The notes under the pieces: model-generated
Told to the model about the DNA's origin: nothing
The model's input: only the letters and a program-made list of their open reading frames with translations
The model's database searches: none
Translations under genes and position numbers: made by a program
Shown: piece after piece, positions 14,064-34,674 of the stretch
Layout: the number at the start of each line of letters is the position of its first letter
Numbering within the stretch: position 1 is the first letter of the stretch
IMG/VR virus record: IMGVR_UViG_3300034418_012856
Coordinates: 1 to 64,000 of that record
From: a virus
Reading direction: 5' to 3' (one strand)
DNA: 64,000 nt

Positions 14064-14618
14064 ATGGCTGGCTTACCACATTATCAAAACTCAATAAACT
14101 CGGTAAACAAATTTGAGCCGGTTTATCTCAATCAGTTTGAGGTAAATGTGATTCCCCCAGCTGCAGTAGCTGGTGGTCCTGTTTTGCTTGAGCATGTTAT
14201 TTCAGTAGATGGTTTAGAGGTTGATAAGAATCCAAGTTTTGTTTCTCAGAAGTATAAATTCGCCAAAAGAAACTATGCTGGTGGTAAGCCAGATACTACT
14301 ACTCTTGATCTGGGGCTTAAATTTACAGTTAACCTGGATGATGCTAATTCCATGTATGTTTTTAAGACACTTAGACAGTGGACAGACCTTATTTATAATC
14401 CTTTGACTGGAGCTCAAGGTATTAAAGCTGATTATACTGGAACTATAGTAGTCTCTGTTTTCAATAAAAATGGAGATGTATTTAGAAGAATTACACTTAA
14501 GGATTGCTTCCCACTCAAAGCGATAGATCCAATGGAACTAGAATATGTAAACGGGAATACCCTTTATGAAATTAGCATGACTTGGGCGGTTGATTATTGG
14601 GACGATCTTTTCTTATAA
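14064..14618 (+). CDS. tail tube protein, paralog 1 (gp19-like)
   Basis: Follows sheath; EPVYLNQFEV, LRQWTDLIYNPLTG, KADYTG, LKDCFP, DYWD. Confidence 0.85.
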   Translation: MAGLPHYQNSINSVNKFEPVYLNQFEVNVIPPAAVAGGPVLLEHVISVDGLEVDKNPSFVSQKYKFAKRNYAGGKPDTTTLDLGLKFTVNLDDANSMYVFKTLRQWTDLIYNPLTGAQGIKADYTGTIVVSVFNKNGDVFRRITLKDCFPLKAIDPMELEYVNGNTLYEISMTWAVDYWDDLFL

Positions 14619-14633
14619 AATAAAAAAAAGTAG

Positions 14634-15212
14634 ATGGCAGGTTTACCACATTTTAATAATTCAAAGGCAGCGAGAAATAATTATGAGCCGGTTTTCTTAA
14701 ACCAGTTTGAGGTTATTATTACCCCGCCTAATGGTATTAATCTATCAAATACTACATTCAGAGGCGAGACAATATTAACTCAGCAGGTAAAGAGTATTTC
14801 AGCATTACAAGTTGATATACAACCCTCTGATGCTGTTACACAATATTACAAGTTTGCTGAAAGAAGATATGCTGGAGGCGAGCCATCAACATCGGATGTT
14901 CAGTTCACTATGGATTTTGAAGTGAATCTTGACGATAATAATTCGATGACACTTTATAAGATATTGAGACAATGGTCTGATCTTATTTACAACCCTCTTA
15001 CAGGAGCAATGGGTTTAAAGAGGGATTATGTTGGATCTATGGTAGTCTCGGTTTTTAATAAGCAAGGTGACGTTTTCAGAAGGATAACCTTAAATAATTG
15101 TTTCTTGGTTGAGCCAATTACACCGATGACATTGTCTTACGATACTGGTGATGCACTTTATACAATTTCCACTACTTGGAAGTCAGATTACTGGAACGAC
15201 CTGTTCTTGTAA
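14634..15212 (+). CDS. tail tube protein, paralog 2 (gp19-like)
   Basis: Shares MAGLPH, EPV.LNQFEV, LRQW.DLIYNPLTGA.G, GDVFRRITL and DYW.DLFL with the preceding gene. Confidence 0.85.
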   Translation: MAGLPHFNNSKAARNNYEPVFLNQFEVIITPPNGINLSNTTFRGETILTQQVKSISALQVDIQPSDAVTQYYKFAERRYAGGEPSTSDVQFTMDFEVNLDDNNSMTLYKILRQWSDLIYNPLTGAMGLKRDYVGSMVVSVFNKQGDVFRRITLNNCFLVEPITPMTLSYDTGDALYTISTTWKSDYWNDLFL

Positions 15213-15214
15213 TT

Positions 15215-15242
15215 GGAACTTAATCACTAATTTTTTCTATAA
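15215..15242 (+). promoter_or_regulatory. putative ECF-type phage promoter GGAACT-N16-CTATAA
   Basis: Member of a recurrent bipartite motif; a GGTATATA late-like element follows at 15265. Confidence 0.55.
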
Positions 15243-17930: not shown

Positions 17931-17972
17931 CAATTGTTTATAAGTTCATTTTTTCCCAACGCAGGGAAATCT

Positions 17973-17980
17973 TATATTTG
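17973..17980 (+). promoter_or_regulatory. Bacteroidota-type -7 promoter element TAnnTTTG (TATATTTG)
   Basis: Intergenic, upstream of the dCMP deaminase / ECF sigma operon. Confidence 0.5.
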
Positions 17981-18013
17981 TTTCACAACTACTTTTTTTA
18001 AACCGAATCGTCC

Positions 18014-18574
18014 ATGGAAGAAACTTTTATTGGTTCTGAAATATTCTTTTCCCAGGAATATTCAGCACAGGGGAATTACTGGATAGCTAGTCCCTCCCTT
18101 GGTAAAGTAATAACCTCAAAAAACAATTTTGATGAAATAAGCGAAACCTTTTATTCTTTGAAGGATAGGAAGATGGACAGGGTCTATCTAGAAATGGCAA
18201 AGGTGTGGGCAACAAATTCTTACTGTGAGCGAATGAAGGTAGGTAGCTTGATAGTTAAGGATAAGTCAATCATCTCAGATGGGTATAATGGATCTCCGAC
18301 AGGATTTCCAAACATTTGTGAAGATGCTTCTCACGTTACACTTCCCCACGTTTTACATGCGGAAGCTAATGCAATTACTAAATTGGCCAAGAGCACTCAA
18401 AGCTCTGATGGAGCTACACTTTATGTTACTGTGTCTCCGTGTTTTGAATGCTCTAAATTGATCATCCAGAGTGGGATAAAAAGATTAGTGTTCAAGGAGT
18501 TATATAGAAAACTTGAATCTCTCAAGTTTTTGTTTGACGCTGGAATTGAGCTTGTTAGATTAAATAATAAATAA
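18014..18574 (+). CDS. dCMP deaminase
   Basis: KVGSLIVKD..IISDGYNG, HAEANAI, PCFECSKLIIQSGI zinc motifs. Confidence 0.92.
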   Translation: MEETFIGSEIFFSQEYSAQGNYWIASPSLGKVITSKNNFDEISETFYSLKDRKMDRVYLEMAKVWATNSYCERMKVGSLIVKDKSIISDGYNGSPTGFPNICEDASHVTLPHVLHAEANAITKLAKSTQSSDGATLYVTVSPCFECSKLIIQSGIKRLVFKELYRKLESLKFLFDAGIELVRLNNK

Positions 18575-18608
18575 GGGGTTAAAAAGGGAATTTACTAAGG
18601 GGAAATAA

Positions 18609-19226
18609 ATGGCAAAAGAAAAAAATATACAGGTTCTGGCTGAGAGTTTCATCCAGACCAGAGGCGAGAGGGAATTTAAACCTCTCTATGAAAGAGTAAA
18701 GCCAGGTGTCTTAAATCACTGTTTTGGCATTCTTAAGGACTTTGAATTAGCTGAGGATGCATTTTTAAATGCAATGTCGAAAGTTTGGCAAAAGATAGAT
18801 CAATACGATAGCGAAAGAGGTAACTTTTCTACTTGGTGTTATAACATTGCTAGGAACGAATCCCTTCTTTTACTGAAAAGCAGAAAAAGATACATTTCAC
18901 AGACTTCCGAAGAGATGGAATATACCTCAGCAAAGCATGAGGAAAAAAATCCATCCTATGATATTGAGGAAGATCCCCTATGGGATTTCTTATGTGGTGG
19001 TAACGATATTGATGACGTTTATGAACAGGTTATCGATGAGATTAAGGAACTTCCAGACATCTACAGGGATATAATGATTGATCGCGAGATTAATGGGATG
19101 AAATACAAAGATATCGCGGACAAGTACAATATTAAAAAGAGATCCATTGCTACCAGAATACGTAGGGCCAGAACCAAAATTCGTAAGAAAATGGAAGATG
19201 CAATGGGAAAATCTGATTTCAAGTAA
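18609..19226 (+). CDS. ECF-like RNA polymerase sigma-70 factor
   Basis: Region 2 (AEDAFLNAMSKVW..FSTWCYNIARNE) and region 4 HTH (LPDIYR..GMKYKDIADKYNI..TRIRRAR). Confidence 0.88.
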   Translation: MAKEKNIQVLAESFIQTRGEREFKPLYERVKPGVLNHCFGILKDFELAEDAFLNAMSKVWQKIDQYDSERGNFSTWCYNIARNESLLLLKSRKRYISQTSEEMEYTSAKHEEKNPSYDIEEDPLWDFLCGGNDIDDVYEQVIDEIKELPDIYRDIMIDREINGMKYKDIADKYNIKKRSIATRIRRARTKIRKKMEDAMGKSDFK

Positions 19227-19687
19227 TGTGGAATATATTAGCAATATTTAGAATTTTCAAGGTTCTTAAGGAACTGAGAATTTATTCGCAGTATAGATCT
19301 ACTGTGAAGGAGGAGAGCATGAATTCTCCCTTTTGGACAAGGCTTAGACTTAGGTACGATTGGCTTAGGAGAATTTACACTGTGATTAATCTACCACCAG
19401 AGGTTACAATGTCTCGAGAGTTTCCTGTGGATGCTAGGCCTGCATATGTTTTTGAAGAACTTAAGGGTGTAAATGATTACCTCACCAAGCTGAATCTCCA
19501 GGAGATAATTACCCCTGTGTTAAAGCCTCTCCCAGAAACAAACGGAGATTCTTATTTAGTAGTATATTATTTCTTTTTCCGTTATCTTTCTTGGATATGG
19601 ATATTTAGGTTTTTGTTAGAAATTACTGGAATTGTATTTTTGATATTGAAGTGGAATTTTTTGATAAGTTATTTTGGATTTGGATAA
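19226..19687 (+). CDS. hypothetical membrane protein
   Basis: Coupled to the sigma gene; hydrophobic C-terminal segment. Confidence 0.6.
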   Translation: MWNILAIFRIFKVLKELRIYSQYRSTVKEESMNSPFWTRLRLRYDWLRRIYTVINLPPEVTMSREFPVDARPAYVFEELKGVNDYLTKLNLQEIITPVLKPLPETNGDSYLVVYYFFFRYLSWIWIFRFLLEITGIVFLILKWNFLISYFGFG

Positions 19688-20486
19688 TATAGGAAAAGTA
19701 AAGGAAGATTACCAGAGAAAGCTAGACATATTCAAGGATCCCAAGTTTATATTTAACGAGTCGGCTCACACGTACCATTTTGAGGGGATCAAATACGATT
19801 CGGTAACCACATTTCTTAAAAGATTTAAAGTCCCTTTCGACAGGGAATATTGGGCAAATAGAAAAGCTCAGGAAAGAGGTGTCGATGTTTCTGTTGTAAA
19901 GGAAGAATGGCAACAAAAGGCAAATGTTGCTAATGTTTTAGGTACAGCGGTCCATAAATGGATAGAGGATTATTGGACTGGATTAAATCCGGAAACACCG
20001 GAAGACCCTGAAGTCAGAAGTAGGGTAGAAAAATTTTTAGCATTGAAGGATGAAAGGTTCCGGGATCTTGTTCCCTTAGAATCTGAGCTTAAGGTTTTTT
20101 CTAAAAAGTGGAGATTAGCTGGAACCGTGGATCAACCCTTTCTTATGTGGGACAAGAAAGAAAATAAGCTTTTGTTCCTCATCGGTGATTGGAAGACCAA
20201 TAAGGAATTTAAGGACGATAAGCATCCAAAGGGTAGATTCAAAAAACTTTTGCATCCTTTCGCGGATCTTTATGAGAATTCTCATAATGAATATTCCATA
20301 CAAATTAGCCTGTATAGGCTAATAATAGAGGAAGAAACTGGATTAGAAACCCATGGAGGTTTCCTTTGCCACATTGGACCTCAAGACAAACCTAAACTAT
20401 ATCCTGTAAAAGACTTACGAGAAAGACTTAAGATATATTTGCAACATAATCGGGAAGAATTCGATGTTTTCGATATCTCCGAGTGA
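19674..20486 (+). CDS. PD-(D/E)XK exonuclease (Cas4/RecB-like fold)
   Basis: SVTTFL, GTAVHKWIE, AGTVD, IGDWKTNK, YSIQISLY. Confidence 0.85.
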   Translation: MDLDNIGKVKEDYQRKLDIFKDPKFIFNESAHTYHFEGIKYDSVTTFLKRFKVPFDREYWANRKAQERGVDVSVVKEEWQQKANVANVLGTAVHKWIEDYWTGLNPETPEDPEVRSRVEKFLALKDERFRDLVPLESELKVFSKKWRLAGTVDQPFLMWDKKENKLLFLIGDWKTNKEFKDDKHPKGRFKKLLHPFADLYENSHNEYSIQISLYRLIIEEETGLETHGGFLCHIGPQDKPKLYPVKDLRERLKIYLQHNREEFDVFDISE

Positions 20487-20511
20487 AACATTACTGTTTA
20501 AATAACTAAAA
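20485..20511 (+). promoter_or_regulatory. putative ECF-type phage promoter GAAACA-N15-CTAAAA
   Basis: Matches the recurrent bipartite motif; upstream of 20528. Confidence 0.45.
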
Positions 20512-20527
20512 AATAAAAAGAAATCAA

Positions 20528-21049
20528 ATGGCAAAGTCAAAAAAACAAACACAGCCAAAAGTAGTAGAACTAGATGCTGACCAACTTGCAGATTCAGTAG
20601 GTGAAGAAGCTCTTTCCCGTTTAAATGAGGGAAGGATTAAAGCTGCTGAGGAAAACCTAGAAAATGCAAAAAAGAGAGTAGCTACCAAAGTTTATGCAGT
20701 CCAGTTTGAATCAATGTATCACATAGATAGATTTATCAGTTTTATGGAAAATGAGGCAGAATGGAAAGAAAAGGAGTCTCTTGGCGTTATTGAAATTTGT
20801 AAGGTTTTGGATAATCTAAAATCTGATGGCATTAAGAACAATATACTTTACCTACAAGCTTTGCCTTTAGAAGCAAGTCACTATTTTATATCTAAGCAAA
20901 GTGGTAAAGGACTTAAAGAAGCTAAGGAATTTATTTCCCTTTTGAAGCCTTTTGAACAAGGCCTGGAATCTGCAAAAGCTGATGCAAGAGAGATTCAGGA
21001 TTTAGAAAAAGAACTCGCCGCAGCTCAACAGGGGCTTGAATTAGCCTAG
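20528..21049 (+). CDS. hypothetical helical protein
   Basis: 173 aa ORF with A-rich leader; followed by a terminator. Confidence 0.65.
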   Translation: MAKSKKQTQPKVVELDADQLADSVGEEALSRLNEGRIKAAEENLENAKKRVATKVYAVQFESMYHIDRFISFMENEAEWKEKESLGVIEICKVLDNLKSDGIKNNILYLQALPLEASHYFISKQSGKGLKEAKEFISLLKPFEQGLESAKADAREIQDLEKELAAAQQGLELA

Positions 21050-21074
21050 AGCACACTATACAAAACCATTATCT

Positions 21075-21108
21075 AAAATAGGCCTTGAGTGATCTAGGCC
21101 TATTTTTT
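21075..21108 (+). terminator. Rho-independent terminator
   Basis: AAAATAGGCCT-loop-AGGCCTATTTT followed by Ts. Confidence 0.8.
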
Positions 21109-21129
21109 AGTGTATATGGATTTAGGTTA

Positions 21130-21137
21130 GATATATA
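21130..21137 (+). promoter_or_regulatory. putative late promoter GATATATA
   Basis: Directly after the terminator, upstream of 21162. Confidence 0.65.
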
Positions 21138-21161
21138 GTAAAACTAAAATTGTAAATAATC

Positions 21162-21455
21162 ATGGTACAAAAGATTAAAGACAACTTCCAATTCATAGTA
21201 TTAGGATTCCTAGTATTGGTTTTTTTCAGACAGTGCGGGGTAAACAGAGACATCGACCGTATTGAAAAGGAGCTCAAAGCATCCAACACAGAATTAAATA
21301 CCAAACTTGACTCGATCAACACCCTTACAAAGGCTGAGATCAGACATGAGATGAATCAGGTAATGTTCCAGTTCCTTATTTATGAGGATGATTTTGATAA
21401 GAAGAGAATATCTCTTTCGGAGATAAAAAATAAGATAGAAGCAAGTGAAGAATAA
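21162..21455 (+). CDS. small membrane-anchored coiled-coil protein
   Basis: N-terminal TM (FQFIVLGFLVLVFF) then Cys and a coiled coil. Confidence 0.6.
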   Translation: MVQKIKDNFQFIVLGFLVLVFFRQCGVNRDIDRIEKELKASNTELNTKLDSINTLTKAEIRHEMNQVMFQFLIYEDDFDKKRISLSEIKNKIEASEE

Positions 21456-22251
21456 ATCAAAACTGGTAAACGGATTTATCATAAGCACCTTCGTGTCTCT
21501 GTATTTGATGGTGTCTGTGATCTCCACTATCCACGTAATTGAATTTTTCGAGCTTTCTAACCCTTCTTGGTTAGCAATTTCTCTTGCAGTAGCTTTTGAA
21601 GTTGGTGCAGCAGCATCCCTGGCTTCCCTAATTGCAATGGAAAAAATGAATAAGTCACTCGTATGGTTTCTATTTATTTTATTAACTGCAATGCAAGCTA
21701 TGGGTAATACTTATTATGCCTTTGTAAATCTTGGTGACTATACCTCTTGGTCCGAGCTCTTCGGTATAATTGAGGAAGAGGAAATATTCCAAAAAAGAAT
21801 ATTATCTATAGTCTCTGGAGCAATCTTACCAATTGTAGCTTTAGGATTTATTAAGTCACTTGTTGACTACATTAAACCTGAAGATGATAAGATAGAAACC
21901 AAAGAGGATGCCGAAGAGGATTTAGAAGAAATCGATTCGTCAGAAAAAGATGAAGAGGAGGATTTAGAGAATCTCGAAGAATATCAGGACATAAGCGAGC
22001 CGCTTATTTACGACTCACATTGGAATGATATTAGTATTCCTGATAAGGATCTTTCCGTGGATAATTTACCAGAACAGGTTGATGAAGGTGATTTAGTAGA
22101 TGCTGGTCAAAGTGATTCTGAAACCTCAGAAGATGAAAAAAAACCAATATCAGAGGATAAAATTGAGATTGTAAACGTCAACTCAAATAAGAATAATCTT
22201 AGGAGAGTAGAAATGCCTACAGACCCTGATATAAATCCAACTAGGCTTTAA
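21445..22251 (+). CDS. multi-pass membrane protein with acidic tail
   Basis: About four hydrophobic segments in the first 145 aa; D/E-rich C-terminus. Confidence 0.65.
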   Translation: MKNKSKLVNGFIISTFVSLYLMVSVISTIHVIEFFELSNPSWLAISLAVAFEVGAAASLASLIAMEKMNKSLVWFLFILLTAMQAMGNTYYAFVNLGDYTSWSELFGIIEEEEIFQKRILSIVSGAILPIVALGFIKSLVDYIKPEDDKIETKEDAEEDLEEIDSSEKDEEEDLENLEEYQDISEPLIYDSHWNDISIPDKDLSVDNLPEQVDEGDLVDAGQSDSETSEDEKKPISEDKIEIVNVNSNKNNLRRVEMPTDPDINPTRL

Positions 22252-22253
22252 TA

Positions 22254-22928
22254 ATGAGCGAAAACACTGGAGATAGCTTTGAAATAATTGGAGGAGGATC
22301 TAGCAACGGCGGAACTGGATCAGGTACTCCTTTTGGGTATGGTAACAGTAACCCGGCTTTAACTACTGGTCAATCTGGACCATGGAATACCGAATATACG
22401 TTAATAGCAAACGACCCAGGATCTTTAAGGAGAGTAAATCTTACTTTTTCAAACTATAACGATCCACACGAGGTTAGGATATTTCAAACCTCTCTTAACG
22501 TCACATACCAGGCTGATATAGAGGAAAAATTAGATTTATCTGAATACTTTCACCCACTCCAGTCTTTTTCAAGCTACCAAAAGCAAACCTTTGTAATTTC
22601 TCCGGACTCCTCGATTAATCTGGACCCAGGTGATTTTGACACAACTTTAGGTGAGGTTAGTTTACTTATGGCAAGAGCACATTATAATGCTGATGCTGTA
22701 GAAGAACAAAGACTACTGTATTGGCATTATAATTCTGGTTTAAGATACATTATGTCAGATATGATGATGCTTACTGGTCAGGTTAAACCTGATGCTTCCT
22801 GGAAAGGATGGCAAACCTTACCAGATTTAGATGTGCAAGTTGGTTACACCGGTGCAGCAACCGGGGGTTTTGTTTTTTCAAATCCAACTGAATATCCGGT
22901 TAAACTAACAATATTAACTGCAAGCTAA
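22254..22928 (+). CDS. hypothetical probable virion protein (paralog of next gene)
   Basis: Ends GGFVFSNPTEYPVKLTILTAS; LLYWHY..MSDMMMLTG. Confidence 0.6.
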   Translation: MSENTGDSFEIIGGGSSNGGTGSGTPFGYGNSNPALTTGQSGPWNTEYTLIANDPGSLRRVNLTFSNYNDPHEVRIFQTSLNVTYQADIEEKLDLSEYFHPLQSFSSYQKQTFVISPDSSINLDPGDFDTTLGEVSLLMARAHYNADAVEEQRLLYWHYNSGLRYIMSDMMMLTGQVKPDASWKGWQTLPDLDVQVGYTGAATGGFVFSNPTEYPVKLTILTAS

Positions 22929-23473
22929 TGGCAACTAGACCTATTATATGTCCACCACAACCTATAGATGGATTTCTTTTTAGAAAGGATAAATTTGTAT
23001 TGGAGGAGGATTACAACATCACAAACTTCTTTGATTTCAGTGATCTCCAGGATGAGGTTATTTCTTATTCGAGATTAAGAGTGACATTGAAAAGAAATAA
23101 GAGCGTGAAAATTAGCCAGACTGATATAGGTGATGAGAATGGGTTTGTTAAATGGGTAGCTGTTAAGGTTAAATACCCAGCACCTAAAAATCCTATACTC
23201 TACGGTTCACAAACACCAATCATACCTGGAGTACCTACTCCTACTAATGGAACACCACAAGTTAAAAAATACATCTATTGGACATACAGGGGAAATACCT
23301 ACAATGTTGGTGAGATGATGATTTTAACTGGTAGTAAATTGGGATCAACTGATTCCGAAAAAACTGGATGGAATCTTAGCGAAGATTTCTTACCTTATGA
23401 AGATGGAGGTATAACCTTCAGCAACCCACACACCGATATTGACGTAAAGCTTGAAATTATAATAGCTAGATAA
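22928..23473 (+). CDS. hypothetical probable virion protein (paralog of previous gene)
   Basis: Ends GGITFSNPHTDIDVKLEIIIAR; YIYWTY..VGEMMILTG. Confidence 0.6.
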   Translation: MATRPIICPPQPIDGFLFRKDKFVLEEDYNITNFFDFSDLQDEVISYSRLRVTLKRNKSVKISQTDIGDENGFVKWVAVKVKYPAPKNPILYGSQTPIIPGVPTPTNGTPQVKKYIYWTYRGNTYNVGEMMILTGSKLGSTDSEKTGWNLSEDFLPYEDGGITFSNPHTDIDVKLEIIIAR

Positions 23474-23536
23474 TTTTTTCTAAAATTTTGACTTTAGTTG
23501 GAATATATAATGGAAAAGTTTCAATATCGCAGGTGT

Positions 23537-23544
23537 GATATATA
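23537..23544 (+). promoter_or_regulatory. putative late promoter GATATATA
   Basis: Upstream of ATG 23568; a second variant GAATATATA lies at 23501. Confidence 0.6.
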
Positions 23545-23567
23545 GAAAGCAAAAAAACACAAGTAGA

Positions 23568-26303
23568 ATGGACTTACTTAATCAATTAAAAACTCTTAGG
23601 GAAACAACCACTAACCCTGAAGTTAAATCTATTTGCGAATCTCATATTAATAAAATACAAAACGGGGAGAACGTAAATGAATCCGCAGTCCTTGAATCTG
23701 TTGATCAGGTTGTGAAGGAAAGCGAAGGCGAAAGCGCTGTGAATCCTATGGAGATGATCAGACAACAAGAAATTGAAAGATCTAAATCTGCAGCTCAGAG
23801 ATTAATGGAATCTTGGGGAGGCATTGGATCATCAACTTCAAGAAATTCCGGATCCTATGTAGATGCTGAAAAGAAAGAGATCGATAACGAAGTTAATAAC
23901 ATCTCCGAAAGCTTAAAAGAAGTTGCTGAGAAAGACCCAGCAGCAAAGGCTTTTGTTGACTCACAAACAGTAAATAACTTAGGAGTTTATGAGTCTATTC
24001 TTTCTCTTAAGGGCACTGGAATTTACGAGCACCCTAACGTTAAGATCCTTTGTGAAAAATATACACACCTACTGAAAAGCAATAACGTCCCTGAATATCT
24101 AGTTGCTGAATCTTTTGTACAGGAACTTCAGAACTTTAACTGGGACAATAAGATTAAGTCTGCAGTAGAATCTATTAGTGAAAAAGTCCAATCACACCTA
24201 CCTGAAATTGAGGTATCTAAAGCTCTTTACTCGATCGAGAAAAGCGCTGGTGCTGATTTCTACTCACCAGTAACTGAGTCTTTGAATAAGTGGTTAATTT
24301 CAGAGAACAAATCAGTTGCTCTACTTTCTAAGGAGCTATCAAGGTGGTCTTTTAACCCAACGGTTAGAAATCTTGTTAATTCACTTTCTTTGATGGAGTC
24401 ATCAGAAAGTAAATTAAGTATTCCAGTTAATAACGGAAATTCTTCAGTTAAGAAAGTTTACTCTCCGGTACATGTAAGTGGCGGTAAAACCGTGTTTACC
24501 ATTGGTAATAATGTCTTTGAAGGAAACTCTGAAGGAATTAAGAGGCTTAATAGAGCAGAATTTGAAGCTCTTCCAGCATCTTTTAGATCTTTATTAGAAT
24601 CTTTCTATTCTCCTATGGTTAAGATTAACGAAAATGGTCTTAGCTTCTATGTTGGAAACAGCAGCTTTAAGCTTGTTGAAGAAAACGATTCAGTTTCTAT
24701 CTACTCGAAAGAAACAAAGATCAACTTCAGTGACCTTAATCAACTTGCTAAGCAAGTAGCTTTGGAGATTTCTGGTAGCTTAGGAGTTAATGAAGCTAAA
24801 GCGGTTTCAGATCTTATTAATTTATATGAGAATTTCGAAAATATCGTTGAGTTGGATTTTGCTAAGAGATTGGAATCAAAGGTATTTGAAGGTGTATCTG
24901 TAAACCTTATTAAATGGAACTCAAACCTTTACCTTAACAGGATAAACGAGGGAATGAATGAGAATTCTCTATTTAAGGTTAACGGATCACAAGCTACCAA
25001 CATGGTTAAGGATTTGATGAAGTACGACATCTCTGAAGGATTAACAGAATTTTTGGATGGCGAGAACAGAATCAAGTCTATTATGCTTAACGATAGAAAG
25101 CAAATCATTGATAACATTTCTATTGTCGAGAATGAAATCAATAAGATTTCACATGCAATGGCTACAAACCCTCTTTACGAAAACTCAAAAGAAATGCACA
25201 GAGCCAAGCACATGCTTGAGCAAGAGCTTTCTTCATTGAGGAAAAAATGGGCGGCTGTTAACGAGGAGATCGAAAAGATTGAGTCAACTGCAACAGAGGT
25301 AAACGACTTAAACGAGGACGAGAAATTTACTGTAGGCGACTACGTGAAAGTAAAAGAGTCTGGTAATACTGGTAAGGTAATTTCAGTCGATAGCACTTCT
25401 GGATCTTATACAGTTCTTATGGACAACGGAAGAACTGGTGATTTCAGAATGGACGAGATCGTTGATATCGAAGAGGCATTAAAATCTGCTGGTGAAGAAA
25501 ACCAAGAAGCAGACGAGACTCAAGAAGAAATCAAGGAGCAAGAAATGGCAGTAGCTCCTGAAAAACAAACTGAATCTGCAAAAGATAAAACTCCTGCTGC
25601 TACACTTAAGGCTAATACTTCTGCAGCTCCTTCTGCTAAGGATCAAGAAGATGCTGGTAAAAAAGACATCGAAAAGGAAGATCATGCTAATTTAGAGGAA
25701 GCTCCAGAAGGTAGCGAGAAGGAAACCAAATATGACATAAAGTTAAAAGATTCTTTGGTTGACAAAATGGGATACAACGTGAATGAAAATTCTGAAGACG
25801 TTGAGTCTACTGAATCTGAAATGGCTGAGGCTCCTGCTGACGGTAACACTGAGTTATCCGAAAGAGACGTTGAAAACACGGATCAAAACCTAGCAGAAGC
25901 ACCAGGTGGAAGAGATCATGCAGATTACGATGTAAAAGCTGCTCATGCAGAGGAGAATAATCCTGACATGGTTAAAACAGACCCTGAAATGGCTTCAGCT
26001 CCTGGTGATGGCACAGATAAAGAAATGCATCACGAGGTTGGTAAAGAAATGGGATACAATCTTGATGAAGCCAACGACGTTGAAAAGACAGATCAACAAC
26101 TTGCAGTAGCACCAGGTGGTGAGCACAAAGCAGAATATGATGTTGAAGTTGCTAAAGCTGAAAAGGCAGTAGCGGATGTCATGAAGACAAACCAAGAATT
26201 GGCTGAAGCTCCTGCAGCAGGAACTGAAGCTGAAACTGATGTTGAGGTAAACCCAGAAATGGGATATAACATTGACGAAAGCGAAGAGTCAAAAAAAAAC
26301 TAA
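23568..26303 (+). CDS. large acidic prohead core / internal head protein with SH3-KOW-like domain and C-terminal repeats
   Basis: Many [LIV]xE sites; FTVGDYVKVKESGNTGKV; repeats (M/L)AxAPxG and MGYN(V/L/I)(N/D)E; ATG 23568 preferred because GTG 23535 overlaps the promoter motif. Confidence 0.55.
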   Translation: MDLLNQLKTLRETTTNPEVKSICESHINKIQNGENVNESAVLESVDQVVKESEGESAVNPMEMIRQQEIERSKSAAQRLMESWGGIGSSTSRNSGSYVDAEKKEIDNEVNNISESLKEVAEKDPAAKAFVDSQTVNNLGVYESILSLKGTGIYEHPNVKILCEKYTHLLKSNNVPEYLVAESFVQELQNFNWDNKIKSAVESISEKVQSHLPEIEVSKALYSIEKSAGADFYSPVTESLNKWLISENKSVALLSKELSRWSFNPTVRNLVNSLSLMESSESKLSIPVNNGNSSVKKVYSPVHVSGGKTVFTIGNNVFEGNSEGIKRLNRAEFEALPASFRSLLESFYSPMVKINENGLSFYVGNSSFKLVEENDSVSIYSKETKINFSDLNQLAKQVALEISGSLGVNEAKAVSDLINLYENFENIVELDFAKRLESKVFEGVSVNLIKWNSNLYLNRINEGMNENSLFKVNGSQATNMVKDLMKYDISEGLTEFLDGENRIKSIMLNDRKQIIDNISIVENEINKISHAMATNPLYENSKEMHRAKHMLEQELSSLRKKWAAVNEEIEKIESTATEVNDLNEDEKFTVGDYVKVKESGNTGKVISVDSTSGSYTVLMDNGRTGDFRMDEIVDIEEALKSAGEENQEADETQEEIKEQEMAVAPEKQTESAKDKTPAATLKANTSAAPSAKDQEDAGKKDIEKEDHANLEEAPEGSEKETKYDIKLKDSLVDKMGYNVNENSEDVESTESEMAEAPADGNTELSERDVENTDQNLAEAPGGRDHADYDVKAAHAEENNPDMVKTDPEMASAPGDGTDKEMHHEVGKEMGYNLDEANDVEKTDQQLAVAPGGEHKAEYDVEVAKAEKAVADVMKTNQELAEAPAAGTEAETDVEVNPEMGYNIDESEESKKN

Positions 26304-26479
26304 GAAAAATACTTAGTAAAGTTTGGGCTTTTGCTCCAACGGGAAAGGATCAGTCTGAAACACCAGAGCCTTTCGTCGATGAGATAAAAGATAAAATGAG
26401 CGTCGCCCCAGATGGAAAAGAACCAACTGGAGACACGCTCATTTCTTCTGAAGATGGATCTGAAGAGGATAAGGTCTAG
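26291..26479 (+). other. A9C slippery site and -1-frame C-terminal extension (59 codons)
   Basis: TCA AAA AAA AAC TAA; -1 frame open 26300-26479 reading LRKILSKVWAFAPTGKDQ...KMSVAPDGKEP...EEDKV*. Confidence 0.65.
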
Positions 26480-26482
26480 GCC

Positions 26483-26510
26483 GAAACTAACCTCGAGGTT
26501 TAAACTAAAA
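26483..26510 (+). promoter_or_regulatory. putative ECF-type phage promoter GAAACT-N16-CTAAAA
   Basis: Directly upstream of the gp55-like late sigma gene. Confidence 0.6.
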
Positions 26511-26533
26511 ATAATATAAGTATTAATAAGGTT

Positions 26534-26893
26534 ATGGCAAAGGCTTATGTAAAAAATAAAGACCTGTTGGCTGCTATTCTAGAGTCAAAGGAAAAAGGTG
26601 AGCTAACACCAGAGACCGTCGAGATGTTTGGTTTAATGGTTCAAGGCATTTCAAAAAAGATGGCTTACCGTGACCCAGACGATAAAGCTGATTGTATGGC
26701 TTTTGCTATGGAAGACCTTTGTAAATATTGGAACAGGTTCAATCCAGAAAAGTCGAATAATCCATTTGCATATTATACACAAATTGCAAAAAATGGGTTT
26801 GCAAAGGGGTGGAAGAAAATACATCCACCAAAGGCACCAAAAACGATTCCATTCTCTTACATAACAGGCGATGACAATACATATAATGTATAA
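26534..26893 (+). CDS. gp55: late-transcription sigma factor (T4 gp55-like, short)
   Basis: YVKNKDLL and RFNPEKSNNPFAYYTQIA match gp55 motifs. Confidence 0.8.
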   Translation: MAKAYVKNKDLLAAILESKEKGELTPETVEMFGLMVQGISKKMAYRDPDDKADCMAFAMEDLCKYWNRFNPEKSNNPFAYYTQIAKNGFAKGWKKIHPPKAPKTIPFSYITGDDNTYNV

Positions 26894-26895: not shown

Positions 26896-27381
26896 ATGCC
26901 CGATATAAAGAAAATAAAACCCAATGGGGACTATAAGTCTGGCTTATACGTTCCACAAAACCCGGACAAGTACATTGGTGACGTCCATAACATAATCTGC
27001 AGATCTTCTTGGGAATTCAGGTTTTGTCGTTATTGCGATACTAACGACAAAATACTTAAATGGAGTTCTGAACCAATCTCTATTCCTTATTACAATCCTT
27101 TGGATAAAAAAGAACACCAATATAATGTGGACTTTTATATGCAAGTTCTAAAGGACGATGAGCAAACTCAGGACTGGATAATAGAGGTCAAGCCAGAGAA
27201 GCACTTCAAGAAACCTATCCTTGAAGGAAATTCAACACTCAAGAAACTTAAGTCCTACAACCATAAAATGCAGATTTGGATTACCAACCAAGCCAAGTTC
27301 AAAGCAGCACAAAGATGGGCAGATGCTAGAGGATACAAATTTGGTGTGGTTGATGAGAATTTTTTATTTAAAAGCAAGTGA
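26896..27381 (+). CDS. gp4: head completion nuclease (T4 gp4, TnsA-like)
   Basis: PQNPDKYIGD, RSSWE..FCRYCD, WSSEP..IPY, YNVDF, IEVKP, NQAKFKAA. Confidence 0.88.
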   Translation: MPDIKKIKPNGDYKSGLYVPQNPDKYIGDVHNIICRSSWEFRFCRYCDTNDKILKWSSEPISIPYYNPLDKKEHQYNVDFYMQVLKDDEQTQDWIIEVKPEKHFKKPILEGNSTLKKLKSYNHKMQIWITNQAKFKAAQRWADARGYKFGVVDENFLFKSK

Positions 27382-27983
27382 AACCTTTTGAAGAGCAAAT
27401 TAAGGACCTAAGAAAGGAATCACAGTCGATTTCTAGCATTTCTAAGGAATCGAATGATTTGTTTAAGAAAAAATATGGACCGAATGGTTCTGGGGGAAGA
27501 CTAGAATTCAATGGAGATTTCATACCAGGTAAATTCTATACCTGCGAATATAAAACGAAAACCAAGATTTCTGATAAAGTTCCCTTTATTGATAGGGAGC
27601 CCGTTTTCATCTTTTTGAAAAAAGAGAAGTTCCAATCTGGATCTATAGCGGTATCTGTAGATCTTGGTGTCATCCCTCCTGATTATAGGGGTAATATTAT
27701 GGTTAAGTTGTGGAACCAGTATTATAATATATTTAAGGATAATGAGTCCTTACCATATACTTCCCAAATTCCCATACAAGGGATCAGTAGGGCATTTGAT
27801 GCTTTATTAAACGGTACTGGGTGGAAAACTTCTCTTACCGGATTTAAGCTCGATTTTATGAATAATATAAAGGTTGTGGACTATACTGATCTTGTCAGGA
27901 TCCCATATCTTTCTGATTTTATGATAGAGGGACAATCCATTAATGGGATATATAGTGATTATAGATCGAAATTAAATCTCTAA
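27378..27983 (+). CDS. DNA end protector-like protein (T4 gp2-like)
   Basis: PGKFYTCEY...PFIDREPVFI, DLGVIPP..R; adjacent to gp4. Confidence 0.55.
   Translation: MKPFEEQIKDLRKESQSISSISKESNDLFKKKYGPNGSGGRLEFNGDFIPGKFYTCEYKTKTKISDKVPFIDREPVFIFLKKEKFQSGSIAVSVDLGVIPPDYRGNIMVKLWNQYYNIFKDNESLPYTSQIPIQGISRAFDALLNGTGWKTSLTGFKLDFMNNIKVVDYTDLVRIPYLSDFMIEGQSINGIYSDYRSKLNL
27947..27954 (+). promoter_or_regulatory. putative late promoter GATATATA (within the 3' end of the gp2-like gene)
   Basis: About 65 nt upstream of the first portal gene. Confidence 0.5.
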
Positions 27984-28016
27984 GATAAAGTACAAAAGAC
28001 AGATCTTATTTTATAA

Positions 28017-29645
28017 ATGGCCGGATTTAACGAAACACCAGAAGGGAACCCGATATTCCAAAGGATTAGAGAGTCTGTAAAGTCTCTCAGCAATTTTGGT
28101 ATGAGGTATGGTGATATGGTCATTAAAAATTCACAGGCCATTGGATCGATAGAAGCTGATTTTATGAAAAAGCAATCTATCGATGATGAGAGCTTGCTTT
28201 ATTCCCTCGGTAGACAAGACACGACCACAAGACAATTTATCAGCTACTATGATAAGGATTACGCAGGAAAGAGAGATTATCTTAGGAAGTTTGCTCTGAA
28301 TCCTGAGATAGAGTACATCTTGGATACTGTCTGTGACGAAGCGATAACTTTTGATTCATACAACTTCTTTGCATATCCAGCATTTTTAAATCTTACCGAT
28401 GTAAAGGATAAGATAAAAAACCGTCTGGACGAGAATTATAAGAATTTGTATGACATGTTCGGCTTCGGCGATGATATCAGCGGGTGGCAATACTTTAGAC
28501 AGCTAATGGTCGATGGCTTTCTTGCCTTTGAAATAGTTTATGATGACAAAGGTAAGAAGATTATTGGATTTAAGGAATTAGATGCAACTACTCTAATGCC
28601 ATCTGTTGAAAAGCAGCCTGATGGTACTTATTTGAGTGTTTGGTATCAATACCCAAAGGATATCAATAAGAGGAGGATGCTATATGACTCCCAGGTGATT
28701 TACATATCATTTGCTAAGGGAAACACAGTTTCTAGGATTAGCTATGTCGAAAGACTTATAAGGCCCTACAACATTCTTAGGATAATCGAGTACACTAGGG
28801 TAATATGGTCGGTTATGAACGCATCGTTCAGAATGAAAATGACTGTACCGATTGGATCGAGATCTCCACAGAAGTCTATGCAAACCTTGGGTGAGCTTAT
28901 GAGTATCTATAAGGAAGATATTAGGTTCAATGATGAGAGTGGGGAGTTAACAGTAGATGGCAGACCTAAGATACAGTTTTATAAGAATTATCTAATGCCT
29001 TCTGGTGTTAATGGAACACCAACGATAGAACCTATTAATAATGCTGGCCCAAACTTAAACGATCCCCAGCCTCTTGCTTATTTCTACGATAAGCTAGTTC
29101 AGGAATCTAAAATTCCTTTTTCTAGGTTCCAAGGTCCTGATGGTGGATCTATAGGAAACTATTCGAATGGTGCAGAAGGATTGGATAAAGAGGAAATAAG
29201 GTTTGGTAAGTTTATTAGTAGGCTTAGATCTATCTTCCAGGATCTTTTGGTTAAGCCACTTTGGATTCAAATGTGTAAGGATTTTCCGGAGTTGGAGAAG
29301 GATTACTTATTTAAGAGTCAACTGGGGTTGGAATATGTTTCTGATAATCCATTCAGGGTTAATCAAGAGATAGAAACCATGCTTAAAAAGAAAGAGCAAA
29401 TTGATGGTATGTATGCTCTTACCGATGATAGCGGTGAGCCTTTCTTTTCATTGGCTTATCTAATTGAGTCTCATTTGGGAATGACTGAAGATGATATAAA
29501 GGCAAATAAGGAAGCTATCAAGAAAAGGAAAGAGGAGGAAAAAAAGAAAGCTGACGAAGAGGCTAAATCTTCGGAGGAAGAACCCGCAGAGGAAGCTCCA
29601 GAAGAATCTCCGGAGGAAACCCCGGAAGAACCCCCACAAGAATAA
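28017..29645 (+). CDS. gp20: portal protein, paralog 1
   Basis: PEIEYILDTVCDEAI, FRQLMVDG, SYVERLIRPYNILRIIE, YKNYLMP, SKIPFSRF, EEIRFGKFISRLR. Confidence 0.88.
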   Translation: MAGFNETPEGNPIFQRIRESVKSLSNFGMRYGDMVIKNSQAIGSIEADFMKKQSIDDESLLYSLGRQDTTTRQFISYYDKDYAGKRDYLRKFALNPEIEYILDTVCDEAITFDSYNFFAYPAFLNLTDVKDKIKNRLDENYKNLYDMFGFGDDISGWQYFRQLMVDGFLAFEIVYDDKGKKIIGFKELDATTLMPSVEKQPDGTYLSVWYQYPKDINKRRMLYDSQVIYISFAKGNTVSRISYVERLIRPYNILRIIEYTRVIWSVMNASFRMKMTVPIGSRSPQKSMQTLGELMSIYKEDIRFNDESGELTVDGRPKIQFYKNYLMPSGVNGTPTIEPINNAGPNLNDPQPLAYFYDKLVQESKIPFSRFQGPDGGSIGNYSNGAEGLDKEEIRFGKFISRLRSIFQDLLVKPLWIQMCKDFPELEKDYLFKSQLGLEYVSDNPFRVNQEIETMLKKKEQIDGMYALTDDSGEPFFSLAYLIESHLGMTEDDIKANKEAIKKRKEEEKKKADEEAKSSEEEPAEEAPEESPEETPEEPPQE

Positions 29646-29654
29646 TAATATAGA

Positions 29655-31259
29655 ATGGCAGGTTTTTTAGATTATGTAGCAGAAAGATCCTTCTTGGGTA
29701 ACCTGTATAAGAATTTATCCAAGGTTGGAAGGTTTGGAATGGAATACGAAGATATGGTAATTCGTAATTCCCAAGCTGTTGGTGCTACTGAATCTAACTT
29801 TTTCAACGAACAGGGAAGTGGATTTACTGAAAACAACGCATTTTATTGGACCCTTGGATATCAAGATACGAAGGTTAGAAAATATATTGCCTACTTCGAC
29901 AAGGACTACATGGGTAAAAGAGACTTCCTTAGGAAATTCTCTTTGAATGGCGAAATTGATTTTATCCTGGATACACTTACTGATGATGCTATCAATTACG
30001 ATGACAAAAATTTCTTTAGTTATCCGTCTTTAGCTAACATTGATCTAAAGCCTAATGTGCTTGATAAGGTAAACGAGACATATCAGAATTTGTATATGCT
30101 GTTTGGCTTTCAGCAAAGCATATTAGCTTGGCAATATTTTAAGCAGTTTTTGATTGATGGGTTTTTGGCTTTTGAGATTGTTTATTCTACTGATGGCAAG
30201 AAAATAGTTGGATTTAAAGAATTAGATCCAACCTCCCTTCAACCCGCTACAGAACAGCAGCCAAATGGTGAATTCCAACAGATTTGGATACAATACCCAG
30301 AGGATAATAAAATGACAAGGAAGCTCAGAAGTGAGCAGATCATTTATCTTTCGTATGCTAAAGGAAATACAATTTCTAGGGTAAGCTATGTGGAGAGACT
30401 TATAAGGTCTTATAACATTCTAAGAATCATGGAAAACACCAGGGTTATTTGGAATGTGATGAATGCTTCTTACAGACTTAAGTTTGTAATCCCTGTTGGT
30501 TCACAGTCTCAGCAAAAAGCGATGCAAACCCTTGGACAGCTAATGTCTATCTATAAAGAGGAAATGGAAATTAATGATTCCTCGGGTGAACTAACAGTAA
30601 ACGGTAGACCTAAGGTTCAGTTTTATAAGAATTATCTTTTCCCTGAGAAAGATGGACAATCCCCACAGATTGAAACCCTTGATCCCAATGGACCAGATTT
30701 CAATGTTATGGATAATGTTATTTACTTCTATAACAAGCTTAAACTGGATTCGAAAATACCTTATGCAAGGTTTGCTTTCCGAAATGGTACCCCGGCTAAC
30801 TATCAAATAAGTATAGATCAGCTAGAAAGGGATGAAATTAGGTTTGAGAAATTCTTAACAAGACTAAGATCGATCTTCCAAGAAATATTGGTCAAACCTC
30901 TTTACATACAAATGTGTTTGGACTTCCCAGAATTAGCTAAGGATAGATCATTCAAAGCAAATCTGGGCCTAAGTTATGTAAGAGAAAACCTTTTCGAGGA
31001 GTTTATTCAATTGCAAAACTATACAAAACGCACCCAGTTTATAAATGACCTTGGTGAAATGAAGCAAAAGATTGGCGAGGAAGAGGAATCTTATTTTGAC
31101 AAAGAATTCCTGATTAAAAGGTATCTCGGTTTAACTATGGACGAATATAAGAAGAACGAGAAATATAAGGAAGCTGAAGCTAAGCTTGCTGAGGAAAAAG
31201 CTAAGGAAGCCGGATCTGAGGGCGGAGAGGAAGGCGGAGGCGAGTCATTCACCCTATAA
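29655..31259 (+). CDS. gp20: portal protein, paralog 2
   Basis: Same motifs: EIDFILD, FKQFLIDG, SYVERLIRSYNILRIME, YKNYLFP, SKIPYARF, DEIRFEKFLTRLR. Confidence 0.88.
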   Translation: MAGFLDYVAERSFLGNLYKNLSKVGRFGMEYEDMVIRNSQAVGATESNFFNEQGSGFTENNAFYWTLGYQDTKVRKYIAYFDKDYMGKRDFLRKFSLNGEIDFILDTLTDDAINYDDKNFFSYPSLANIDLKPNVLDKVNETYQNLYMLFGFQQSILAWQYFKQFLIDGFLAFEIVYSTDGKKIVGFKELDPTSLQPATEQQPNGEFQQIWIQYPEDNKMTRKLRSEQIIYLSYAKGNTISRVSYVERLIRSYNILRIMENTRVIWNVMNASYRLKFVIPVGSQSQQKAMQTLGQLMSIYKEEMEINDSSGELTVNGRPKVQFYKNYLFPEKDGQSPQIETLDPNGPDFNVMDNVIYFYNKLKLDSKIPYARFAFRNGTPANYQISIDQLERDEIRFEKFLTRLRSIFQEILVKPLYIQMCLDFPELAKDRSFKANLGLSYVRENLFEEFIQLQNYTKRTQFINDLGEMKQKIGEEEESYFDKEFLIKRYLGLTMDEYKKNEKYKEAEAKLAEEKAKEAGSEGGEEGGGESFTL

Positions 31260-32277: not shown

Positions 32278-32305
32278 ATCATTTTTTTAGTACGTTTTGG
32301 TTTCT

Positions 32306-32313
32306 TAGATTTG
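32306..32313 (+). promoter_or_regulatory. Bacteroidota-type -7 element TAnnTTTG (TAGATTTG)
   Basis: Intergenic, upstream of DNA ligase. Confidence 0.5.
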
Positions 32314-33681: not shown

Positions 33682-33709
33682 GAAACTTAAGGCTCTTTTT
33701 TCTGTACAA
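33682..33709 (+). promoter_or_regulatory. putative ECF-type phage promoter GAAACT-N16-GTACAA
   Basis: Upstream of the clamp loader operon. Confidence 0.5.
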
Positions 33710-33726: not shown

Positions 33727-34674
33727 ATGATAGACCAACTCCTCACAGAGAAGTTAAGACCCAAACAAATCAAGCATATGATCCTTCCAGACAGGATCAG
33801 AAAATTGTTCGACGAAAAGGGGCTTAACCATAATGTTTTATTAGCAGGATCTCCTGGGTGTGGAAAGACAACTTTAGCAAAGATTCTTTCCAACGATCTC
33901 CCACACATTTTTATAAATGTATCTGACGAGAGCTCCGTTGATACCATCAGGACCAAGATAAATGAATTCTGTTCTACCATGAGTATCATGGATGGGAAGT
34001 CATCTAAAAAAGTGGTTGTACTGGATGAGTTTGATGGTGCTTCTGATCAATTCTATAAGGCATTAAGGGGAACAATCGAAAAGTTTGCTTCCAATACTAG
34101 GTTTATTGCAACCTGTAATTGGCTGAATAAAGTACCAGAAGCTATTCAAAGTAGGTTTGAGGTTATCAATTTCGATCCGATAAATCAAGCAGAGGAGGAG
34201 TTTTTACGAAATGAATGGAGAAGTAGGATCAAGCTAATTCTTGGGAAGTTGAGCATCTCTATTGACGATGCATCTCTTGATGAGTTTGAGAAGGAGTACT
34301 TCCCAGATCTTAGATCTTCCCTAAACCGAATCCAATCCTGGGTTATCGAAGGAGTTCAAACAATTGATATTTCTAGGGTAAGGGATTCTGGCTGGTCATA
34401 TGATGATCTCTACAATATGATCTTTTCTTCTAAGGATCCGATTGGTAATTACCAGGTGATAGTTGGTCAATATTCATCTAAGGTCGATGATGTTATGGCT
34501 GCTTTAGGTGAGGAGTTTATACAATGGATCATGAAGAATAAATCTACGTACGCTAAGATTATTCCAGCAGTAGTAGTTGAGGTTGCTCATCACCAGGCAC
34601 AGAGACAACTGGTTATTGATCCAGTAGTGAGTTTGTTGTCTCTGATTTTTAAGATACAAAAACTAGTAGACTGA
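33727..34674 (+). CDS. gp44: clamp loader ATPase subunit (gp44/RFC small-like)
   Basis: TEKLRP, GSPGCGKTT, VVLDEFDG, FIATCN, AIQSRF, PDLR. Confidence 0.92.
   Translation: MIDQLLTEKLRPKQIKHMILPDRIRKLFDEKGLNHNVLLAGSPGCGKTTLAKILSNDLPHIFINVSDESSVDTIRTKINEFCSTMSIMDGKSSKKVVVLDEFDGASDQFYKALRGTIEKFASNTRFIATCNWLNKVPEAIQSRFEVINFDPINQAEEEFLRNEWRSRIKLILGKLSISIDDASLDEFEKEYFPDLRSSLNRIQSWVIEGVQTIDISRVRDSGWSYDDLYNMIFSSKDPIGNYQVIVGQYSSKVDDVMAALGEEFIQWIMKNKSTYAKIIPAVVVEVAHHQAQRQLVIDPVVSLLSLIFKIQKLVD

Follow-up and report, generated by a model that had tools for sequence, protein, structure and literature searches.

IMG/VR virus record IMGVR_UViG_3300034418_012856 contains, within its first 64,000 nucleotides (nt; hereafter the window), genes for two different sigma factors and three classes of predicted promoters that may together form a transcriptional relay. 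One of these genes (18609-19226) encodes a sigma factor of the extracytoplasmic function (ECF) type and the other (26534-26893) a short homologue of gp55, the late sigma factor of phage T4. The window makes up the first 64 kb of one virus contig of 83,837 bp, which has a G+C content of 37% and about 78 open reading frames (ORFs), nearly all on the plus strand. PHROG and Pfam scans identify T4-type virion genes (large terminase, sheath, two tube genes, two portal genes, prohead protease, gp23-type capsid, gp4-like and gp2-like) as well as genes for replication and repair (clamp loader, ligase, RNase H-like exonuclease, UvdE-like, Fpg-like and dCMP deaminase). By capsid protein, the nearest phages in the databases are LR756500, which is uncultured (46%), and the Lak megaphages of Prevotella (39-44%), followed by Tenacibaculum PTm1 and Flavobacterium MaF61 at about 31%, and the hosts of the nearest phages are Prevotella, Tenacibaculum, Flavobacterium and Chryseobacterium. 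A scan of the contig for E. coli-type TTGACA/TATAAT promoters finds sites below chance. The source is most likely an uncultured T4-related jumbo phage with a member of the Bacteroidota as its host. CheckV places a 107-kb close relative at 39% completeness, and the contig therefore represents about one third of a jumbo-phage genome. More than 200 relatives in IMG/VR carry both sigma genes, some on contigs of 230-373 kb.

The ECF-type sigma is encoded within a predicted early operon that runs from 18014 to 20486 (Table 1). In Pfam it matches Sigma70_r2 over residues 26-94 (E 5.7e-13) and Sigma70_r4_2 over residues 139-191 (E 1.5e-10), with no match to region 3 or region 1. This is the two-domain architecture of ECF (group 4) sigma factors and bears out the ECF-like assignment made in an earlier, sequence-only reading of the window. 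The best full-length match among solved structures is B. subtilis SigW (5wuq), and the alignments that span both domains are to ECF sigmas (SigW 5wuq and sigma-H 6in7); RpoE (2q1z) matches in region 2 only. The nearest NCBIfam model is TIGR02985 (Sig70_bacteroi1, the Bacteroides-expansion ECF family) with 83.3 bits at a cut-off of 126.4, followed by sigma_PG0214 (75.5 bits, cut-off 130) and SigW (64 bits, cut-off 209). The broad model TIGR02937 alone is passed; it is passed by the RpoD-like sigma described below too and hence is not ECF-specific. By its domains the protein is classified as an ECF-type sigma outside the named subfamilies. Its homologues in IMG/VR number more than 200 (69-97% identity), and when cellular homologues were sought the best 120 matches (66-96% identity) resembled the same phage clade and came from metagenomic sources. 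The start of the following ORF, 153 amino acids (aa) long, overlaps the sigma stop codon; its product has a hydrophobic segment at about residues 120-150, and in 131 of 132 loci a homologue of it (46-95% identity) comes directly after the gene for the sigma. The protein has no family match in Pfam, PHROG or NCBIfam, anti-sigma families included, and the ESM Atlas returned only unnamed clusters. It occupies the position of an anti-sigma factor, which makes it a speculative candidate for that role.

The second sigma gene had been called gp55-like from its sequence, and the identification holds. Besides its PHROG family (Table 1), the best PDB match of the protein is T4 gp55 (7d7c_F, E 2.6e-4), with residues 5-106 aligned to residues 10-123 of gp55 and an NP.AY.TQ block in common, and tblastn leads to cyanophage genes annotated as late sigma. 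The Pfam region 2 model gives 21.4 bits, under its 24-bit cut-off. The homology covers gp55 segments 1-2, the sigma region-2-like part that binds core polymerase and DNA. The protein stops 60 residues short of T4 gp55, and its strongly conserved tail, IPFS[YH]ITG[DE][DE]N[ST]YN[VI], is hydrophobic and acidic; T4 gp55 has a C-terminal hydrophobic and acidic epitope that binds the sliding clamp (PMC2988020). Neither the co-activator gp33 nor the clamp gp45 is found among the PHROG matches of about 60 window ORFs, on a contig that is a fragment and whose small ORFs are matchless. The gp4-like and gp2-like genes follow without a gap.

As the sequence-only reading had noted, the ECF-sigma operon is headed by TATATTTG at 17973-17980; the ATG at 18014 is 33 nt further on. 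Motif counts on the contig refer to all 83.8 kb and are compared with 60 dinucleotide shuffles, the band being the 20-100 nt upstream of a start; for conservation, ten window genes were traced to their orthologues in IMG/VR loci, and motif counts in the unique sequences among the 120-nt upstream regions were set against shuffles. The bare TAnnTTTG box does not exceed chance: about 50 plus-strand copies are expected and 45 are present. Its extended form, TTTTT-N3-8-CG-N11-TAnnTTTG, is confined to three sites on the contig (17949-17980, 32282-32313 and 39372-39402), all of them intergenic and on the gene strand; it is absent from the other strand, and other spacings give 0-2. The box is kept upstream of the operon in 18 of 23 relatives (shuffle 1.9) and CG-N11 in 14 of 23, and upstream of the ligase gene the figures are 26/37 and 32/37. 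The primary-sigma promoter of Bacteroidota consists of a -7 box TAnnTTTG and a -33 box TTTG. The -7 box is present and conserved in the early class, whose upstream partner is a T-run with CG-N11, not TTTG.

A second, bipartite class stands directly before the gp55-like gene, where the sequence-only reading had placed an ECF-style element. Its pattern, RAACW-N15/16-CTAWAA, was defined after the sites had been viewed, and the relatives serve as the hold-out set. The contig has six copies on the plus strand and none on the minus strand, five of them in the band at 42-63 nt upstream of starts (shuffles 1.3 in total, 0.12 in the band); the sites at 27968, 33682 and 38458 are degenerate, their second box being GTACAA or CTAAGA. 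Among relatives the bipartite motif is found upstream of the gp55-like gene in 30 of 49 sequences (shuffle 0.5), or 41 of 49 under a looser pattern, with no early-type site; it also precedes the orthologues of ORF 20528 (17/24, shuffle 0.3), where it persists down to 40% protein identity, and the clamp-loader gene (15/35, shuffle 0.2). Upstream of the gp55-like gene, GAAAY-N16-[CG]TA[AG]AA recurs at the exact 16-nt distance in at least three contexts that cannot be aligned (an ORF tail, a terminator, and a hairpin enclosing the second box). The strict pattern was counted in 2.4 Mb of loci from relatives: 174 copies are on the gene strand and two on the other. When spacings after the 5-mer are tallied, the gene strand alone has a peak, at N16/17 and nowhere else, with 45 and 84 unique strings where the background is about 17; the corresponding figures for G002, a complete relative of 290 kb, are 17 and about 4. 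The genes behind the motif (clamp loader, RNase H-like exonuclease, UvdE-like, gp55) resemble the T4 middle set.

Three observations concern these sites and their surroundings. The spacer of the gp55-gene element contains a palindrome, AACCTCGAGGTT (26489-26504), that is conserved in the sub-clade of the window; among relatives there are symmetric double changes (CCCCGGGG) and one-sided changes that fit G-T pairing, and the spacers at other bipartite sites are not conserved. The palindrome may act as an operator to which a dimeric regulator binds, or it may form a small hairpin. In five loci of one sub-clade and in two Lak loci the upstream region of the gp55 homologue has a -35-like box followed by a long hairpin and a T-run, with a -10-like box (GATATAA or TAAAAT) in the hairpin loop, and terminator and promoter appear to be superimposed there. 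At 38458-38493 only 4 nt separate the end of the -10 box from the TTG called as start of the UvdE-like gene, which leaves three possibilities: a true start further on, a leaderless mRNA, or a site that is no promoter.

The third class is the single-block motif GATATATA, with 19 copies on the plus strand of the contig and none on the minus strand; 15 lie in the band (shuffles 2.8 in total, 0.23 in the band). Information profiles of these 15 sites and of 46 from G002 show the GATATATA block alone, with no -35 partner, and T4 late promoters, which are read by gp55, likewise consist of a single -10-like block (PMC2988020). By analogy the gp55-like protein here would read GATATATA. The sequence-only reading held that this motif heads the structural operons; the operons that it heads are mostly, though not solely, structural, and ORF 15279 and the first portal gene at 28017 carry the bipartite motif as well. 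Relatives keep both motifs at ORF 15279 (late 32/35, bipartite 23/35) and at the portal gene (late 42/42, bipartite 22/42), and the tandem arrangement suggests two-phase expression. The late motif is not enriched upstream of the dCMP-deaminase/ECF-sigma operon (3, shuffle 4.2) or the gp55-like gene (9, shuffle 7.7). The called GTG start (23535) of the 922-aa gene lies inside a GATATATA element; it is therefore probably too early, and the real start lies downstream. This gene has the deepest cover in the metatranscriptome contigs described below.

The wiring holds in more than 100 IMG/VR relatives with varying spacers and flanks, and the ECF-sigma operon and the gp55-like gene each have one motif class, early only (bipartite 0/23) and bipartite only, respectively; virion genes keep GATATATA. 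In G002, ORFs are preceded by 46 late sites (control 3.1), 16 bipartite sites (control 1.5), which cluster at 20-60 and 100-175 kb, and 13 early sites (control 1.3), mostly at 180-290 kb before small ORFs on mixed strands; the three classes differ in genomic distribution. The early type dominates a block of ORFs of 50-150 aa at 253-269 kb, where 16 small ORFs (51-147 aa) are each preceded by TTTTTT(A)TCCYG-N10-12-TTAYWTTTR and then a conserved leader, TAACCAATTAAAA; the block is probably an immediate-early region. The three oriented, gene-proximal motif classes and their pairing with genes are real and conserved.

Table 1. Genes and predicted promoters of the window, with the RpoD-like sigma gene of the complete relatives
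Feature	Position	Strand	Basis
Middle-type GGAACT-N16-CTATAA before ORF 15279, then late-like GGTATATAG	15215-15242	+	motif, conservation
Predicted early (host sigma-A-type) promoter: T-run, CG, N11, TATATTTG; heads operon 18014-20486	17949-17980	+	motif, conservation
dCMP deaminase, first gene of early operon	18014-18574	+	Pfam PF00383 E 3.5e-24; PHROG 174 E 1.3e-53
ECF-type sigma factor, 205 aa, sigma-2 and sigma-4	18609-19226	+	Pfam r2, r4_2
Conserved 153-aa protein, hydrophobic C-terminus, candidate anti-sigma (speculative)	19226-19687	+	position after sigma gene
PD-(D/E)XK exonuclease, last gene of early operon	19674-20486	+	PHROG 298 E 5.9e-35
Middle-type GAAACA-N15-CTAAAA before ORF 20528-21049 (unknown function)	20485-20511	+	motif, conservation
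Predicted late promoter GATATATA after terminator-like hairpin, before 21162-23473	21130-21137	+	motif; late motif in 27/27 upstreams
Two late-type elements (AATATATA at 23502, GATATATA at 23537) before 922-aa gene	23502-23544	+	motif; late motif in 51/51 upstreams
Middle-type GAAACT-N16-CTAAAA, 23 nt before gp55-like ATG 26534	26483-26510	+	motif, conservation
gp55-like late sigma, 119 aa	26534-26893	+	PHROG 234 'late sigma transcription factor' E 1e-14
gp4-like head-completion and gp2-like DNA-end-protector genes	26896-27983	+	PHROG 218 E 2.1e-45; PHROG 429 E 2.9e-6
Predicted dual promoter: late GATATATA, 13 nt later GAAATT-N16-GTACAA; before portal gene 28017	27947-27995	+	motifs, conservation
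Predicted early-type promoter: T-run, CG, N11, TAGATTTG; before DNA ligase 32331 (PHROG 114)	32282-32313	+	motif, conservation
Middle-type GAAACT-N16-GTACAA before clamp-loader operon 33727-37380 (PHROG 168); overlaps terminator-like hairpin	33682-33709	+	motif, conservation
Weak middle-type GAAACT-N16-CTAAGA before UvdE-like gene	38458-38485	+	motif
Predicted early-type promoter (TAGTTTTG) before Fpg/Nei-like glycosylase and 3'-5' exonuclease	39372-39402	+	motif
Middle-type GAAACT-N16-CTATAA before ORF 53103 and AsnB-like gene	53055-53082	+	motif
Middle-type GAAACT-N15-CTATAA before ORF 57114	57064-57090	+	motif
RpoD-like sigma	L164 1595-2491 (G001 ~311 kb); G002 ~280 kb; G006 ~70 kb		

Each sigma gene lies behind the motif class of the preceding tier, and this arrangement holds across relatives. 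We infer from the motifs their promoter nature, the temporal order of the classes and the pairing of each class with a sigma. In the proposed relay successive sigmas would act on the host RNA polymerase core. The sigma-A-type promoters (T-run, CG, N11, TAnnTTTG) would be read by the host primary sigma, and possibly also by a phage RpoD-like sigma, to yield nucleotide and repair genes together with the phage ECF-type sigma. This sigma would in turn read (T)GAAAC(T/A)-N16-CTAwAA and so switch on genes for replication and repair along with that of the short gp55-like sigma, which may finally read the single-block GATATATA(R) upstream of the virion genes. ECF sigmas typically recognise an AAC-containing -35 box separated from the -10 box by a spacer of 16-17 nt, and B. 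subtilis SigW recognises TGAAAC-N16-CGTA. The bipartite motif is ECF-like in its AAC-containing -35 box and 16-nt spacer, and its assignment to the ECF-type sigma is proposed because of these two features together with the SigW-like C/G before TA and the lack of a conserved -7 T. We put the probability of the full relay at about 0.55.

A further sigma of about 300 aa, similar to RpoD and RpoS, is encoded in all three complete relatives (G001, G002 and G006; 373, 290 and 349 kb). It has regions 1.2, 2 and 4 by Pfam and aligns over its full length to RpoD/RpoS models; a search with it returns only metagenome proteins that resemble the phage clade, with more than 500 homologues, and in G001 its gene is preceded by TTTTTTTT-N16-TACCTTTG, an early-type promoter. 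Incomplete relatives have one or two sigma genes, and the absence of the RpoD-like gene from the contig is therefore uninformative about the whole phage. The idea that three of them (G003, G004 and G005) truly lack it was dropped, these genomes being incomplete and the gene lying near the genome end in G002. The contig probably lacks part of the sigma system. The simplest pairing joins the RpoD-like sigma to the early, primary-sigma-type class. The wiring from which a cascade of host sigma, ECF sigma and gp55 had been read is real and conserved, and the system probably has more players.

Several points weigh against the proposed relay. The ECF-type sigma scores under the curated cut-off of every named ECF subfamily in NCBIfam. 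Positive autoregulation from an own promoter is common, if not universal, among ECF sigmas, and this one has no autoregulatory promoter, the bipartite motif being absent upstream of it in the window and in all 23 relatives. The strict pattern has only 4-6 sites in the window and was defined post hoc, and its -10 box (CTAwAA, often cTATAAt) is AT-only, without the CGT/GTC core that ECF promoters commonly have. The gp55 homologues of Lak-B5 and Lak-A1 are preceded by an AAAAC(A/T) box and a hairpin, with no clear bipartite match, and those of LR756500 and the Chryseobacterium phage MA9V-2 by no bipartite motif; the pattern is not enriched genome-wide in any of the four, although distant homologues of the ECF-type sigma are present in the Lak phages and LR756500. 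For this reason the motif is taken to be clade-specific, in a comparison that does not discriminate an ECF-type from an RpoD-like reader. Finally, the candidate sigmas outnumber the motif classes by four to three, and the RpoD-like one may be the reader of the middle class. In that case this sigma, encoded off the contig, would recognise GAAAC-N16/17-TAwAA, and the ECF-type sigma would have another job, at a few unrecognised promoters, on host genes or as a stress-linked switch. We regard this as unlikely, yet as an alternative to be taken seriously: the gene is present in every complete relative, and, read one base later, the -10 box resembles TATAAT at several sites (15215, 53055) and the spacer measures 17 nt, which is classical group-1 geometry. 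The only non-gp55 sigma of phage CBB, moreover, has regions 2-3-4, and the middle class of that phage, with -35 TGAAACG and -10 TATA, stands before its gp55-like gene (PMC5259590). However, A and T are about equally frequent where group-1 promoters have their near-invariant -7 T, which argues against a -10 box of group-1 type, and the conserved C/G before TA recalls SigW-type CGTA boxes. The universally conserved ECF-type sigma would also be left without targets; a search for a fourth motif class in the gaps of G002 found only the conserved leader of the early promoters. The early class, moreover, is the simpler partner for a sigma that has the length and domain set of a primary sigma.

Bacteroidota encode many ECF sigmas, and the phage protein is most like the 'Bacteroides expansion' family, whose members in the host could share its specificity as paralogues. 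The middle class could then be read by a host ECF or alternative sigma, or by sigma-A redirected in the manner of MotA/AsiA, with the phage ECF-type sigma uninvolved; the appropriation of sigma by T4 provides a precedent (PMC6024815). A host reader seems improbable, since the motif is kept at 40-99% protein identity, presumably in different hosts and always with the phage sigma, and a phage-borne reader is simpler. The bipartite class is, furthermore, not enriched in the Bacteroidota phage MA9V-2, which lacks the ECF-type sigma, and no MotA/AsiA homologue occurs among the roughly 60 window ORFs scanned from this incomplete contig. It is more improbable still, to the point of being hardly credible, that the bipartite element is a gene-boundary signal other than a promoter, such as a regulator binding site or a signal for RNA processing or translation. 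The conserved palindrome in the gp55-gene spacer, with its symmetric variants, and the overlap of several sites with terminator-like hairpins (33682, and the upstream regions of one sub-clade, C, and of Lak) would fit such a signal. Yet the palindrome is limited to one site in one sub-clade, and two boxes at a fixed 16 nt with a free spacer, strict strandedness and a position 10-40 nt before start codons are the signature of -35 and -10 elements. A variant of the preferred relay, in which the phage has a private set of sigmas (RpoD-like for the early class, ECF-type for the middle class and held by the downstream membrane protein as its anti-sigma, gp55-like for the late class), is doubtful. 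If it were true, the middle-to-late switch would be gated by a signal, not by simple accumulation.

The closest known parallel to the preferred relay is the three-class scheme predicted in silico for the Rak2-like jumbo phages CBB (vB_PcaM_CBB) and GAP32 (Buttimer et al. 2017, PMC5259590). In that scheme a phage sigma is encoded in a small-ORF region with host-type early promoters, a class with -35 TGAAACG precedes DNA-synthesis genes and the gp55-like gene, and an ATAAATA class precedes structural genes (PMC5259590). Both systems belong to T4-related jumbo phages, have the second class directly before a gp55-like gene and a T4-like late motif of a single block before structural genes, and are bioinformatic predictions. 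They differ in that the Rak2-like phages infect Enterobacteria and have a TTGACA/TATAAT-like early class, compared with TAnnTTTG here, and ATAAATA as late motif, compared with GATATATA. Their early-encoded sigma has regions 2-3-4, is not of the ECF type and has no BLAST similarity to the ECF-type sigma described here, whereas the present clade has the ECF-type and, in complete genomes, the RpoD-like sigma. The sequence-only reading had set its SPO1-style cascade in a T4-like phage against the MotA/AsiA mode of T4, a contrast that overlooks this published scheme.

With T4 the phage shares homologues of gp23, gp20, gp18, gp19, gp4, gp2, gp44 and gp55, a predicted single-block late promoter and a late sigma gene that would be expressed from the preceding class. 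T4 runs its early, middle and late programme on sigma-70, MotA/AsiA and gp55-gp33-gp45, whereas a dedicated middle sigma is proposed here, no MotA or AsiA being found among the roughly 60 ORFs scanned; its gp55 has 185 aa compared with 119 aa, segment 3 and the T4-type C-terminus are missing here, and its late motif is TATAAATA instead of GATATATA. SPO1 passes the host core from sigma-A to gp28 and then to gp33/gp34, the sigma of each tier lying behind promoters of the previous tier (PMC13401047). The relay logic is the same, but SPO1 belongs to an unrelated phage lineage and its proteins are unrelated too; it lacks a gp55 homologue, and its late sigma, gp33/34, is bipartite. gp36 of phage phiEco32 is an ECF-family sigma that is expressed from a host-type promoter and redirects the host core polymerase to middle and late promoters (PMC4281155). 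Both phages thus encode a sigma annotated as ECF, but phiEco32, a podovirus, has a single phage sigma, only one motif (tAATGTATA) and no gp55 tier. Group-2 jumbo phages, including Lak, have been described as encoding a minimal and a fuller sigma (Iyer et al. 2021, PMC7824862), and papers on related aquatic Bacteroidota jumbo phages contain a sigma gene or expression data and no promoter analysis (PMC12619734, PMC9723584).

The relay logic is thus not new, given SPO1, the T4 late tier and the similar Rak2-like scheme, and the value of the present system lies in comparison and annotation. Distinctive are the ECF-type middle candidate, the Bacteroidota-type early promoters, the GATATATA late box, the 119-aa gp55 and probably the RpoD-like sigma. 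It would be a second lineage besides the Rak2-like phages that joins a T4-type late system to a dedicated middle sigma, not MotA/AsiA, and bears on the evolution of the T4-type programme. The clade is large, abundant and uncultured, with hundreds of IMG/VR contigs from freshwater and salt-marsh, genomes of 230-373 kb and predicted hosts among the Bacteroidota, and the promoter code could assign a temporal class to hundreds of genes of unknown function. The orthogonal pairs of sigma and promoter could also become genetic tools in Bacteroidota.

Nine freshwater RNA runs contain 23-48% of the words sampled from the phage, and four of these metatranscriptome runs, compared with the window, have 99%-identical contigs with uneven cover that peaks at 23.6-26.3 kb and 20.3-21.0 kb. 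Being assemblies, these contigs are uninformative about 5' ends, strand and timing, and no start site is supported from them here. A gap of 230 nt (26304-26533), with no called ORF and no evident terminator, separates the 922-aa gene from the gp55-like gene, and the metatranscriptome contigs extend beyond the stop codon of the 922-aa gene to about 26408. Late read-through into the gp55-like gene would mean positive feedback. Past the window, the contig ends within a Thr/Pro-rich tandem repeat (83346-83837) that probably broke the assembly. An open frame of 191 codons from stop to stop (53947-54522) lies in an uncalled stretch of 484 nt between ORF 53103 and the AsnB-like gene. Two virion genes are present as tandem diverged duplicates, the tube gene at 14064-15212 (184 and 192 aa) and the portal gene at 28017-31259 (542 and 534 aa), both copies of the latter matching PHROG 213 at about 1e-57.

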